Numbered from the stretch's first letter, positions 7,505 to 63,218 are shown. The stretch: DNA of 64,000 nucleotides from Octopus vulgaris (GCA_951406725.2 OX597834.1:24924001-24988000); one strand, 5' to 3'. The notes: generated by a model not told the origin, from the sequence alone. Made by a program: numbers and translations.

Positions 7505-7669
7505 CAAGGTGGAAAAAAGAGTACTCAAATACCAGTGGTAGAGTAATATGCTTTATTTAAAGCAGCAGAAAATTCAACAAAACCGGTTACTCTGAGTTTC
7601 ACATTCCCGTTCGTGAAACTCAGAGTAACAGGTTTTGTTGAATCTTCTGCTGCTTTAAATAAAGTATAT
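7505..7669 (-). mobile_element. Fold-back PLE-type insertion: 57-bp inverted arms, ~40-nt tail, truncated hammerhead at the turn
   Basis: Arms 7546-7602 and 7613-7669 (3 mismatches); minus strand 7614-7588 reads ACGA-ACG-GGAA-TGT-GAAA-CTCAGAG-TA. Confidence 0.75.
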
Positions 7670-8521
7670 ATATATTTCAGTTTCCGTCTACTTAATCCAC
7701 TCACAAGGCTTTGGTCAGTCTGAAGCGACAGAAGAAAACACCTGCCTAAGGTATCACCCAGTGGGACTGAACCCAGAACCATGTGATTGGGAATTGTAAG
7801 GTAGAAATCGAAATGTAATAAAATATTTTAAAAGAAATTTAAAATGCCTGCGTGATAAGTGTAAACCTGCTTTTGGGCCATCTTGTATATATATATATAT
7901 ATATATATACATATATATATATATATGAGTGTGTGAAAGCGTATGCACTCACGTGTGTGTGTGTGTGTGTGTGTGTGTGTGTGTGTGTGTGTGTGTGCGT
8001 GGGTGTGTGCGTGAAAGATTGTAACTGAAAGAAAAGATGACAATAATGCTCAGAGAAACGTAGTGTTAATTCATAAATTTGTTTAAATTGCAATTTCAGT
8101 CGCTGCTCGATTTCATGCCCTGCAACCTTTCACAAACACAAACAAGAAACCGCTTATTGATAATCGAACCTTCCCACCACCTCTCACCTTCTCCAATCTC
8201 TGGCCTACTTACAATTTGCTATGCTCTCTTTCTTTTCATACAACTACTATCAGATCTTTTGTTCACTCTCTACTACCCCCATCACCATCCGTATTGCACT
8301 TGGTACCCTTTCTCTTGTTACATACAGAAGAACTACTCCAGACTACAGAATTATTCCTTCAACTCTTCCCGCCATTACATCGGTGCTGTTTTATTTCTCT
8401 CACAGTCGTCGTTCTTTCTCTTCCATATCTCGTCTTCTATTAAGGTGGCAGAATCGTTCGAGAGTCGGACAATATGCTCAGCAAGATTTCTCCCGGCTCT
8501 TTACATTCTGAGTTCAAATGC

Positions 8522-8698
8522 AACCGAGGACATCCCAAACATACATATTAGAGACCACAGACTACAGGAGGTGGAGAAGTTTACCTATCTTGGCTCTAAC
8601 GTTACTTACAACCTATCCCTTGATGCCGAGATCAATATACGCATTGGCAAGGCAGCTGCTGTGATGGCCCAACTCTCCAAACGGGCATGGGACCACAA
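8522..8698 (+). pseudogene. RTE-clade LINE reverse transcriptase fragment
   Basis: IPNIHIRDHRLQEVEKFTYLGSNVTYNLSLDAEINIRIGKAAAVMAQLSKRAWDHN: FTYLGS...EINxRIGKA motif; interrupts a SINE C head at 8443-8527. Confidence 0.88.
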
Positions 8699-8726
8699 TA
8701 TATATATATATATATATATATATATA

Positions 8727-9292
8727 TACTCTTTTACTTGTTTCAGTCATTTGACTGCGGCCATGCTGGAGCACCACCTTTAATCGAGCAACTCGACCCC
8801 GGGACTTATTCTTTGTAAGCCCAGTACTTGTTCTATCGGTCTCTTTTGCCGAACCGCTAAGTGACGGGGACATAAACACACCAGCATCGGTTGTCAAGCA
8901 ATGCTAGGGGAACAAACACAGACACACAAACACACACGCACACACACACACATATATATATATATATATATATACATATATACGACGGGCCTCTTTCAGT
9001 TTCCGTCTACCAAATCGACTCACAAGGCTTTGGTCGGCCCGAGGCTATAGTAGAAGACACTTGCCCAAGGTGCCACGTATAAATATAAATATATATATAT
9101 ATATATATATATATATATATATATATACGACTGGTTTCTTTCAGTTTCCGTCTATTTAATCCACTCACAAGGCTTTGGTCAGTCTGAAGCGACAGAAGAA
9201 GACACTTGCTTAAGGTATCACCCAGTGGGACTGAACCCAGAACCATGTGATTGGGAAGCAAGCTTCCTACCACACAGCCACGCCTGCACCTA
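8727..9292 (-). mobile_element. SINE family B: head-less copy (8727-9077) and 5'-half copy (9127-9292)
   Basis: Near-identical to 9963-10366 and 36148-36551. Confidence 0.92.
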
Positions 9293-9962
9293 CGCATATA
9301 AAAGATAATAAACAACGTGTTTTAACAATTTTTTAAAAATACAATTCCTAATAACAACTAATTATAAGAGTACTTTTAAACATCGAATGGCTATGAAGGT
9401 TCATCCAAGTGAAATAGAAATCAAAGGAGTCGATGAGCAAAGTATGTTCGAGAACCACTGTCGTAGCACCACTGCTAATTCCCTGCCCCCACACAACATA
9501 GTAAAAAAATTGTAATCTTAACAAGCCTAACTAAACAGACACACCTTCACTGCATCAGTTACGTCTTTTCCCTACACGCCCCAGACTTTCTACTAAGTAC
9601 GTCACTCACTCACAGCTTCCCATCATTTCAACACTATGGAATTTCCTCTTGACTCATTTAGTCTTATTTTTTGTATTTTGTCTTTCCTCTTCTTCAAACG
9701 GGCGTTGACTTGCAGAAAAAATTCCTGCTGCGAAGGTCAGGGAAATCGATATTTCTTGTTTAAAGAAACGAAGTGTAAACTAGGAAATACGAAGTTTGAT
9801 AAGGTATTACGTACGTATGTACGTACATACATACATACATACATACATACATACATACATACATACATACATACATACATACATACATACATACATACAT
9901 ACATACATACATACATACACACACACACAAACACACACACACACACACATATATTACCCTTT

Positions 9963-10366
9963 TACTCTTTTACTTGTTTCAGTCATTTGACTGCAGCCAT
10001 GCTGGAGCACCGCCTTTAGTCGAGCTAATGAACCCCAGGACTTATTCTTTGTAAGCCTAGTACTTATTCTATCGGTCTCTTTTGCCGAATCGCTAAGTGA
10101 CGGAGACGTAAACACACCAGCATCGGTTGTCAAGCGATGTTGGGAGGGACAAACACAGACACACAAAGATATACACACACATACATATATATACATATAT
10201 TCGACGGGCTTCTTTCAGTTTCCGTCTACCAAATCCACTCACAAGGCTTTGGTCGGCCCGAGGCTATAGTAGAAGACATTTGCCCAAGATGCCACGCAGT
10301 AGGACTGAACACGGAACCATGTGGTTAGTAAGCAAGCTACTTACCACACAGCCACTCCTGCGCCTA
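9963..10366 (-). mobile_element. SINE family B, full length (~400 bp; tRNA-like head, CORE-like ccttgggcaagtg box, internal (TA/TG)n)
   Basis: Minus strand: ggcgcaggagtggctgtgtggtaag (A box)...GTTCAGTCC (B-box-like)...; 3' end cagtcaaatgactgaaacaagtaaaagag. More than 15 copies in the window. Confidence 0.93.
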
Positions 10367-60534: not shown

Positions 60535-60989
60535 GAAACTAAGGCTCTGCTCCTTTAAGCAAAGACAGTACATTTATTACAATGTACTGTTTTCCCATCT
60601 AAAGTTAGAATCAAATGCAGCAATAGCTTAGGGTCCAAAGGGTGGCAGGTTTTCAATATGCTACCAAAAAATACGGGAAATTTGTTTTAAGGCATTCAAA
60701 CTAAAATTTCAATACTCTACTGTTAAAGATCTTACACGGGTTCACGTCACGAAGACACCTGTATGAGAGCAACAGTAGCATAAAGATCTATCTTTCACCC
60801 AACAGTAACTTTAGATGGACTACTGTAACATCAGCAACAATAGCGATGTTCTTGCTCGCATTATCTACGAACTGGAAACAGTAAAAATGTAAAAGAATTT
60901 CCCCTTACTTCCTTTTAAACACTTTGTGTTTGTACGATCTGTTGCCACGTGAAACCTCAATTACAATGTCGATGGCACTCACCGCTGAT

Positions 60990-61783
60990 GAGATGGCCGA
61001 GTTCTTAGCGCGCCGAGCGAAATGCTTAGCGGTATTTCGTCTGTCGTTACGTTCTGAGTTCAAATTCCGCTGAGGTCGACTTTGCCTTTCATTCTTTCGG
61101 GGTCGATTAAATAAGTACCAGTTACGCACTGGGGTCGATGTAATAGACTTAATCCGTTTGTCTGTCCTTGTTTGTCCCCTCTGTGTTTAGCCCCTTGTGG
61201 GTAATAAAGAAATAGGTATTTCGTCTGTCGTTACGTTCTGCGTTCAAATTCCGCTGAGGTCGACTTTGCCTTTCATCCTTTCGGGGTCGATAAATTAAGT
61301 ACCAGTTACGCACTGGGGTCGATGTAATCGACTTAATCCGTTTGTCTGTCCTTGTTTGTCCCTTCTGCGTTTAACCCCTTGTGGGCAGTAACGAAATAAG
61401 TATTATTTGAAGTACGATCTGCGTTCAAATTCCGCCGAGGTCGACTTTGCCTTTCATCCTTTCGGGGTCGATTAAATAAGTACCAGTTACGCACTGGGGT
61501 CGATGTAATCGACTTAATACCTATGTCTGTCCTTGTTTGTCCCCTCTGTGTTTAGCTCCCTTGTGGGTAATAAAGAAATAGGTATTTCGTCTGTCGTTAC
61601 GTTCTGCGTTCAAATTCCGCTGAGGTCGACTTTGCCTTTCATCCTTTCGGGGTCGATTAAATAAGTACCAGTTACGCACTGGGATCGATGTAATCGACTT
61701 AATCCGTTTGTCTGTCCTTGTTTGTCCCTTCTGCGTTTAGCCCTTGTGGGCAGTAACGAAATAAGTATTATTTGAAGTACGAT
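60990..61783 (+). mobile_element. SINE family C tetramer (duplicated dimer)
   Basis: Units start at 61031, 61215, ~61399/61419 and 61581; 3' flank agtattatttgaagtacgat is present at both 61399-61418 and 61764-61783. Confidence 0.95.
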
Positions 61784-62164
61784 TGAATAATTGTGACTAT
61801 ATTTGTATGAAGCCATTGGTATCATACTAAAAACACTCCACTACAGAAAGAAATTAGTCAAGCAACAATGCGTTACGGACTAGTCACATTTCATTTCGTT
61901 ACTAATCTATATGAGTGTGTCTCTGTATGTGTATGTGTGATGCATGTATATATGCATATATCTTTACATGAGTGCATATATGTTTTGTGTGTATGTGTGC
62001 ATGCGTGTGTGTTTGGCAAATTGGTTCTCAAACTTATCAGTATTCTGTCTTGAGCGAATCCGTTAAAAGAATGTGATAGTAACCCCATAAGTTTTAATCT
62101 AAATTCTACACCATTTATCAAAAATTCCATATCAGTGTACACATTGGGAGTAACATATGTTCAA

Positions 62165-62520
62165 AGTATCTTATTTCCAGAAAAAGTTTCCTGTTAATTA
62201 AGGAGTTTAACCTATTAACGATAATAAACCCGACCTCTTCCTTGAAAACCAAACTATATCTCTCGGTGACATATAAATGCCTCTGCTGCTGGAGTTGCCA
62301 AATGACAATCCCTCGGACAATAACGGTGAACACAATTTGAAAACTGAAGACCACATATGTCAAGAGCTAATCCCTAGAGGAGAGCACATATGGCGATGGT
62401 GTATTGTTCGAACGGTGAAGCTTGAGTTTGTTCGACAAACTTTTGTAGTCAACCAACCAACACCGTTTCGTTTCCACCACTTTAAACATCAAATGTGTAT
62501 ATTTATCCCCACTTAAACGT
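62165..62520 (-). pseudogene. Possible highly decayed PLE GIY-YIG endonuclease fragment
   Basis: Frameshifted pieces KSLSNKLKLHRSN / PLGIS.HM / KEEVGFIIVNRLNSLINRK resemble GIY-YIG C-terminal halves; a decayed hammerhead-like motif lies nearby (62645-62687). Confidence 0.35.
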
Positions 62521-62899
62521 GGAGGTTCTGTTAGAACAGACTTTACTTTGGCAGCTACCATGAGAGAAACTCTCAAAATGCACTCTTGTTTCTCTCGCTA
62601 GCTGCGAGATAAATCCCCTCACCCATATCCAGCGCCGAGACAGCCAGGTCACGTGATTTCGACCTTCCTTGGTCTTGTCCGTGATGGTGTGTGTAAGTGT
62701 ATTATGTATTTATGTATATATATATATATATATATATATATATATATACAGTCTTAGGTTCCGGTTCTGGTGAGGTCGACTTTGCCTTTTGTCTCTTTGA
62801 GGTGGATAAAATAAGACTCGCGAAATTCTTGGCCTTGTGACAAAATTTGAAACGTATATATATATATATATATATATATATATATATATATATATTATA

Positions 62900-63218
62900 T
62901 ATATTATATTAAATTAGAGATAAAACCACTATTAGGCAAATCAAACAATGAAAAACTTAAGCCAATACATAAAATTAATTAATTTATATTATTTTAAATA
63001 TATATCAAAATTATTAAACTTTTAATAATTTTGATATATATTTAAAATAATATAAATTAATTAATTTTATGTATTGGCTTAAGTTTTTCATTGTTTGATT
63101 TGCCTAATAGTCGTTTTATCTCTAATTTAATATAATATAATATTTTACTATAAAATTGGATTCAATCCTAAATCTGATTTTTCCCTGTAAGTTTGGATTT
63201 ATTCCCTAATATTTTATT
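62900..63218. mobile_element. Fold-back insertion in (TA)n: 119-bp arms, 2-nt loop, ~80-nt tail
   Basis: Arms 62900-63018 and 63021-63139, one mismatch seen; tail 63140-63218. Confidence 0.92.

Follow-up and report, generated by a model that had tools for sequence, protein, structure and literature searches.

Seven fold-back hairpins at an Octopus vulgaris locus are very probably ultra-short insertions of Penelope-like elements

Introduction

What kind of element leaves seven hairpins, of several unrelated sequences, at microsatellite edges within a single stretch of DNA? The stretch concerned comprises 64,000 nucleotides of Octopus vulgaris (GCA_951406725.2 OX597834.1:24924001-24988000; hereafter the window, with positions counted from its first letter), and its hairpins are numbered H1 to H7 in Table 1. 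A reading made from the nucleotides alone (the sequence-only reading) had proposed that they are not miniature inverted-repeat transposable elements (MITEs) but ultra-short insertion products of Penelope-like elements (PLEs). The follow-up analysis reported here confirms the observation and supports the PLE reading, and insertions of this kind are already described in other animals. We consider it very likely that each hairpin is one insertion of an endonuclease-bearing (EN+) PLE, cut down to the last 60 to 240 nt of its pseudo-long terminal repeat (pseudo-LTR). Added here are two hammerhead motifs with a U3-A8 core at the turn points of hairpins, an argument from arm lengths, and a possible tie to the editing of double-stranded RNA (dsRNA).

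Results

Hairpins were sought by minus-strand self-BLAST after microsatellite masking, with 20 local shuffles as the control. The masked 64-kb window gave seven strong short-range inversions versus none in each of the 20 shuffles; all seven hairpins lie where the sequence-only reading had placed them, and they are the sole strong short-range inversions of the masked window. The window itself has 35.5% GC, consists to 16% of perfect microsatellites and carries one large cluster of repeats resembling short interspersed nuclear elements (SINEs). Hairpin stems occupy 1,274 of its 64,000 bases (2%), or one hairpin per 9 kb, with predicted folding energies of -81 to -215 kcal/mol. Arm identities are ~89-99% across the seven hairpins, with indels in H2 (14 nt, which together with a single substitution is all that separates its arms) and in H5 (27 nt, included in the 129 alignment columns, of which 92 match), and the arms differ by substitutions or indels in every hairpin (7/7). 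The earlier count of six unrelated families is borne out, the only cross-match between hairpins being that of H4 with H6; self-comparison of the window further matched H3 to 12817-12951 and H4/H6 to 22608-22742.

Every hairpin was said to begin at a microsatellite edge, and such an edge was seen at the tail-less end in 7/7, although the tract is short in H1 and H4 (~4-5 TA units) and is (CA)n in H5. The flanks being microsatellites, any target-site duplication would be masked. Contrary to the general (TA)n setting, the tail of H5 ends at a SINE piece instead of a TA tract. As for the one-sided tail of ~30-80 nt attributed to six hairpins, it is present in 6/7, but the range was too narrow: the extensions measure 41 nt in H1, 35 in H2, 89 in H3, 46 in H4, 35 in H5 and 78 in H7, whereas H6 keeps only 2-5 nt of the H4 tail before a (GT)n tract. 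Public contigs demonstrate that the tail is family sequence for H2 only; for H1, H3, H4, H5 and H7, whose tails occur once each in the window, we infer the same.

The sequence-only reading had asked that the outer boundary be fixed and the turn point variable, and this is what we found both in the window and in contigs of the H2 family. In the H4 family, 5/5 arm ends stop at one common base, and in the H3 family 3/3 arm ends coincide within ~4 nt (the H1, H5 and H7 families are known from single copies). By contrast with this common end, arms of the H4 family have their inner ends at +37, +56, +93 and +106 when counted from the cut site of its hammerhead, and the 22.5-kb copy of the H4/H6 family extends through that hammerhead. 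A degenerate tail behind the 22.5-kb copy was considered and rejected (rank 6 of 322 TA-flanks, with 5.6% of windows scoring equally).

For the H2 family, depth was taken from four public runs aligned to 10535-10782, two of contigs and two of raw reads. The contig runs X1 and X2 contributed 1,667 and 871 aligned records. In X1 the summed depth reached 4.1-5.5e5 on the hammerhead core, 4.8-5.7e5 where the arm ends and 3.3e5 along the tail, against 149 in the turn bin; in X2 the corresponding values were ~1e5, 1.2-2.1e5, 1.1-1.9e5 and 4.9. Summed contig depth is not copy number, and since the tail-to-arm ratio differs between the runs (~0.6 versus ~0.9) no fraction is drawn from it. Among public contigs, the turn point of H2 is thus ~1,000-fold rarer than the arm and tail of the same hairpin, and contig pieces pass from the arm through the tail. 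Because depth is high on arm and tail and tiny at the turn, the H2 tail and U3-A8 core are family sequence, and the H2 junction is private to this locus. Just upstream of the H2 core, the loose ends of contigs are heterogeneous (17 contigs, agreement 0.65). Raw reads over 10535-10782 numbered 0 in run X22 and 5 in run X23. Searched by pattern in genome, metagenome and viral contigs, the H2 and H4 families gave no match.

Hammerheads had been claimed for three families. Those three ties stand, but the count was too low, the H2 and H5 families bringing it to five of six. The added motifs, at 10589 in H2 and 40340 in H5, are minimal hammerheads with the U3-A8 core variant and sit where these hairpins turn. 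A scan for the C3-G8 core gave full type-I motifs at 22539(+), with a predicted cut after 22571, and at 13015(-), with a predicted cut after 12973; the former (22533-22577) reached 32.2 bits (E 8e-7) against Rfam Hammerhead_1, below the gathering score of 34. The H1 motif has A6-N7-G8-A9, a short stem II, GAAA, a near-palindromic helix III and a UA cut site after 7588, and is cut at A6, the 5' C-U-G of the core being missing at the turn. The H2 motif combines a 4-bp stem II with a palindromic helix III (AGCGCT) and a predicted cut after 10621, and contigs of its family list no substitutions across the U3-A8 core. That of H5 has a bulged base, a 5-bp stem II and a 3-bp stem I, helix III being absent. 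For H2, H5 and the 13.0-kb copy, these hammerheads are motif-level calls, and their self-cleavage is predicted.

A strict descriptor matched the window three times (22539, 10589 and 40340) versus 0.02 in 100 shuffles. A looser one without stem I matched six times versus 0.47 +/- 0.66 in 100 shuffles; four of the six are 22539, 13015, 10589 and 40340, and the number expected within 20 nt of any turn point is 0.001. The other two matches, at 3618(-) and 41276(-), lie away from the hairpins and may be due to chance (0.47 expected). A whole-window Rfam scan was swamped by matches of microsatellites to microRNA models (150 of 377 matches listed).

In each of the five families that have one, the hammerhead faces outward, lies 38-171 nt before the fixed end and has the tail beyond it; the orientation it gives shows that the arms are joined head to head (5/5). 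The earlier claim that the tail-bearing arm is the one in hammerhead sense is half self-evident, because both arms read in the sense direction when followed outward; its substance, a tail 3' of the hammerhead and a head-to-head arrangement, holds in 5/5 families.

Table 1. Coordinates of the hairpins, their tails, hammerhead motifs and non-hairpin copies in the window
Feature	Position	Strand	Remarks
H1 one-sided tail	7505..7545	-	~40 nt, stops at a short TA tract; one copy in window
H1 hairpin	7546..7669	.	arms 7546-7602 / 7613-7669, 54/57 identical, 10-nt loop; left, tail-bearing arm longer
H1 partial type-I hammerhead	7583..7614	-	3' two-thirds; read by eye, missed by descriptor scans
H2 hairpin	10442..10736	.	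left arm 10442-10573, right arm ~10583-10736; near-perfect
H2 minimal hammerhead	10583..10628	+	U3-A8 core 10589-10595, at turn point; no Rfam match
H2 tail	10737..10772	+	30-35 nt, belongs to high-copy family (public contigs)
H3-family non-hairpin copy	12817..13025	-	tail-less, C3-G8 hammerhead, ends at (TA)n; no Rfam match
H3 hairpin	20526..20737	.	left arm 20526-20598; right arm 20602-20737 longer, tail-bearing; 67/75 identical
H3 one-sided extension	20738..20826	+	89 nt, exceeds published tails
H4/H6-family non-hairpin copy	22520..22742	+	intact type-I hammerhead 22533-22577, ends at (TA)n
H4 hairpin	25609..25815	.	left, tail-less arm 25609-25745 longer; right arm 25747-25815; 67/69 identical
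H4 tail	25816..25861	+	46 nt; first 2-5 nt recur at right end of H6
H5 hairpin	40225..40469	.	arms 40225-40332 / 40335-40469, 2-nt loop; (CA)n at left end
H5 minimal hammerhead	40335..40375	+	U3-A8 core at 40340, at turn point; no Rfam match
H5 one-sided extension	40470..40504	+	35 nt, SINE fragment as boundary
H6 hairpin (H4 family)	52397..52588	.	left arm 52397-52514, right arm 52507-52588; 75/81 identical; without full tail
H7 hairpin	62900..63139	.	AT-rich near-perfect palindrome, 2-nt loop; one substitution over ~120 nt; no hammerhead motif
H7 one-sided extension	63140..63217	+	78 nt, stops at (TA)n

Several other repeats share the window. A decayed PLE reverse transcriptase (RT) fragment of ~950 nt lies at 31500-32445 (-), running from the YVDD motif through the thumb with frameshifts and with microsatellites on both sides. 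It is 52-61% identical to an Octopus vulgaris protein (61% over 31.9-32.2 kb); Pfam did not recognise the RT fragments of the window. At its end the homolog has a cluster of Cys residues and the beginning of an endonuclease-like motif, and we take it to be a Neptune-type PLE. This fragment shows that PLEs target microsatellite tracts in this genome; it is joined to none of the hairpins. At 12645-12767 (-), a 120-nt piece between two TA tracts carries a hammerhead-like motif ~40 nt before its end, with a U3-G8 mismatched core, GAAA and a palindromic helix III (by eye). This motif passes no descriptor and has no Rfam match; the piece is possibly a non-hairpin stub of a seventh family.

Directly left of the H1 tail, a small element at 7287-7497 has matching 26-nt inverted ends and TA flanks, and is presumably MITE-like, of the Tc1/mariner type. 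A direct duplication of ~100 nt of its right end (7403-7496 and ~7795-7885) encloses H1 together with a SINE fragment. A short C-terminal RT fragment at 8530-8700 (+), which we assume to be RTE-like, stops at a TA tract. The 219-amino-acid open frame at 32879-33538 (-) has a weak zf-RVT match (E 0.014) and presumably resembles the C-terminal part of a non-LTR retrotransposon, with its zinc knuckle and restriction-like endonuclease. Tandem partial copies of an abundant SINE-like repeat, with ~180-nt spacing, occupy 22820-23597 and 60994-61783, and 44 window segments of SINE-like repeats fall into one linked cluster.

Discussion

The layout of these hairpins, with a 5'-truncated inverted copy, a one-sided tail, a hammerhead and TA targets, is the published signature of EN+ PLEs. 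Craig et al. 2021 report insertions that are heavily truncated at the 5' end and adjoined by an inverted copy, itself 5'-truncated, with a tail of 30-40 bp on one side and (TA)n tracts as targets (PMC8557442). The octopus families have a minimal type-I hammerhead (5/6), a fixed 3' end, variable 5' truncation and an inverted copy, and a tail at one end is present in 6/7 hairpins, longer in H3 (89 nt) and H7 (78 nt). The proposal of ultra-short PLE insertion products is thus supported by hammerheads 5' of the fixed end in 5/6 families together with the match to the published layout. The hairpins very probably work like EN+ PLEs and belong to them. We regard a PLE origin as highly probable for H1-H6, and for H7 as probable with clearly less assurance. 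The larger idea of a multi-family ribozyme-retroelement system is not new. We propose that the stubs are dead, non-autonomous by-products.

Several observations nevertheless weigh against this interpretation. No hairpin family is linked to an open reading frame (ORF) for RT/GIY-YIG: 151 PLE-like proteins, gathered using an Octopus RT as query, match only 31.5-32.4 kb of the window, and the translated arms match no protein. The 78- and 89-nt extensions exceed the published tails of 30-40 nt. Descriptor scans found no hammerhead motif in H7 (62.9 kb), and local Rfam scans recognised a hammerhead in one of four regions, leaving the H2, H5 and 13.0-kb motifs unmatched. The H2 motif has a C-A mismatch at the usual G10.1-C11.1 position. 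Moreover, the H2 and H5 motifs were first spotted by eye and the descriptors written afterwards. No listed contig bridges the H2 junction, and no strand-change joint is listed either. A reading frame in the H5 tail, likened by eye to the N-terminus of the PLE protein P0002, was not confirmed.

Three other explanations deserve attention. The hairpins could be MITEs, moved by cut and paste with TA target duplications, and their tails unrelated flanks: their size (120-300 nt), the TA on both sides and the high copy number are MITE-like, H7 is a symmetric palindrome without a hammerhead, and a Tc1/mariner-like element with matching ends adjoins H1. Yet the uniform length and shared interior of MITEs are missing, since H4, H6 and the 22.5-kb copy turn at different points; non-hairpin copies run through the hammerhead, which five of six families possess; and in place of symmetric ends, H2 has a tail made of family sequence and a centre specific to its locus. 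Turn points that vary among copies of a family while the outer end stays fixed speak against MITEs, which the sequence-only reading had also rejected, and we hold this explanation to be largely refuted for H1-H6 and very improbable overall. Even less credible is an origin as fold-back artefacts of assembly or library preparation at microsatellite edges. All seven hairpins do touch microsatellites, the arms of H2 and H7 are almost perfect and none of the listed contigs bridges a junction, but arms that are never identical, an inversion that halts at a family-specific base common to separate loci without ever including the flank, and a turn-bin depth in H2 that is low yet non-zero in both contig runs all argue for real insertions.

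The presence of hammerheads in short units with no ORF linked to them would also suit protein-free, self-propagating ribozyme retroelements resembling retrozymes, with the hairpin itself as the unit. Non-LTR retrozymes, however, are arrayed head to tail, and two or more of their units carry a complete hammerhead (bioRxiv 10.64898/2026.07.22.740005), whereas the octopus copies are single or head to head, their hammerheads are cut through or absent and their junctions are unique, which makes this alternative very doubtful. A link to the Eulor "hairpin-tail" repeats found no support in the accessible part of Kojima 2018.

How, then, would a PLE produce such a head-to-head join, a question that Craig et al. 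call open for PLE inverted structures in general (PMC8557442)? In the model that we propose, the RT/GIY-YIG protein of a PLE located elsewhere in the genome would nick an AT-rich (TA)n tract on both strands. The element RNA would offer two internal start sites close to each other, at the end of the pseudo-LTR and at the end of the tail, and the cDNA primed by each nick would begin at one of them. Synthesis of both cDNAs would end prematurely, in many cases within the folded hammerhead or close to it, and their 3' ends would be joined through short microhomology. We lean, by a modest degree, towards two separately primed cDNAs joined head to head in this manner.

The arms of one hairpin differ at 1-2/60 positions versus 7-10/60 between the arms of H4 and H6, and hence each hairpin is one event from one type of template. 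The longer arm is the tail-bearing one in H1, H2 and H3 and the tail-less one in H4 (135 versus 69 nt), H5 and H7 being symmetric; in H6 the longer arm is tail-less, provided that its 2-5 nt stub marks the tail side. It follows from the H4 arm lengths that a single tail-end cDNA snapping back cannot produce H4, while two cDNAs would yield all cases. In H1, H2 and H5 both arms pass the predicted cut site and continue upstream for 15-38 nt, and their template would accordingly have been uncleaved RNA. In the six hammerhead-linked hairpins the end of the longer arm falls from -38 to +56 relative to the cut site; stalling at the ribozyme fold may be the reason, although short hairpins were selected. 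The H6 arms are joined via 8 nt of microhomology. The model fits the purified Anolis PLE protein, because this enzyme cuts and extends both strands, uses unprocessed RNA and has two adjacent internal start sites that define the tail; a dimer is predicted (PMC11167929). On the opposite side, the one-tailed pattern in 6/7 is not significant versus an independent choice of tails (8/128 = 0.06, by hand). Nor was there support for TA microhomology as the primer on the tail-less side (7 nt in H2, 4 in H3, 2 in H4, 5 in H7 and 0 in H1; combined P 0.07).

The same PLE origin could also act by self-priming, in which an antisense transcript or cDNA folds back, is copied by the RT and is trimmed at one end by the endonuclease. 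Self-priming has been suggested in the literature for head-to-head palindromes of Penelope elements in Adineta vaga (PMC3846280), Craig et al. explain the tail by resolution through the endonuclease (PMC8557442), H6 turns where the element itself contains an 8-nt inverted repeat, and the 2-nt loops of H5 and H7 are as a fold-back would give. But a simple snap-back makes the tail-bearing arm the longer one, against 69 versus 135 nt in H4, and two RT start sites already account for the tail in vitro (PMC11167929). Versions with later trimming survive, and we keep self-priming as a serious possibility that is less probable than the joining of two cDNAs.

These stubs resemble MITEs and would be annotated as MITE or unknown. 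A 2026 repeat annotation of O. vulgaris includes families labelled Penelope, MITE and unclassified, and is silent on hammerheads in its main text (PMC13282606). Short stubs keep both ends and the junction inside one read; thus, statistics of arm length and tail could tell twin priming and self-priming apart. No higher fraction of loci capable of forming long near-perfect dsRNA has been reported than that of octopus (4.4e-3), which also shows extreme hyper-editing; the accessible text of that study does not analyse the repeat source of octopus dsRNA, and in lizard Penelope is the heavily edited element (PMC5625713). Self-folding stubs may be candidates for feeding octopus RNA editing. A rather unlikely extension of this hypothesis would make PLE stubs the main genomic source of octopus long near-perfect dsRNA, and hence of ADAR hyper-editing; the one-tail rule, like the concentration of turn points around the hammerhead, would record an asymmetric RT dimer that uses each start site once and stalls at the ribozyme fold. 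Straight extrapolation from one window gives hundreds of thousands of stubs, which would make the idea directly countable.

Comparison with known systems

No paper on these octopus families was found in the openly searchable literature. The work of Lunse et al. (2017) on PLE hammerhead variants may already list these motifs. Three octopus Naiads (Naiad_Obim, Naiad_Ovul and Naiad_Omin) are PLEs with a (TA)n preference and no canonical hammerhead (PMC8557442 supplement), in which they differ from the stubs, with hammerhead motifs in five families. Six short motifs, one per family, gave 0/6 exact matches to the octopus Naiad consensuses, where line breaks could hide matches; the motif search of the consensuses in that supplement returned one unrelated hagfish match, and by eye the 3' ends of Naiad_Obim and Naiad_Ovul bear no resemblance to any arm.

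The minimal hammerheads of PLEs show covariation in the U3-A8 core and a bulged base before stem II, and opposite-strand pairs 100-700 bp apart have been noted (Cervera and de la Pena 2014, PMC4209133), a paper whose text contains no occurrence of "Octopus". With that metazoan set, including the U3-A8 variant of Schistosoma, the octopus motifs share a short or palindromic helix III and a short stem I (PMC4209133); unlike it, three octopus motifs lie at the fold-back point or are cut by it.

The palindrome at an inverted junction was described for Penelope elements by Arkhipova et al. 2013 (PMC3846280), and the curation guide of Goubert et al. 2022 gives the same PLE features (PMC8969392). The octopus stubs are like EN+ PLE insertions in their truncation, inverted adjacent copy, tail at one end, junction palindrome and (TA)n preference. 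They differ in that the pseudo-LTR end alone is left, with no ORF between the arms, in the presence of six families within 64 kb, and in the two extensions of 78-89 nt versus the published 30-40.

A further close parallel is PAc, a Poseidon PLE of Anolis carolinensis with a hammerhead, ~100-170 nt, two ends defining the tail and an AT-rich target (PMC11167929). The inverted join is not modelled in the accessible part of that study (Frangieh et al. 2024), which found no strand bias in the start site (PMC11167929). Unlike in PAc, in the octopus families no ORF start downstream of the hammerhead matched any protein. The stubs nevertheless share with PAc the hammerhead-to-tail spacing and the AT-rich target and, as deduced here, probably also the cutting and extension of both strands and the use of uncleaved RNA (PMC11167929).

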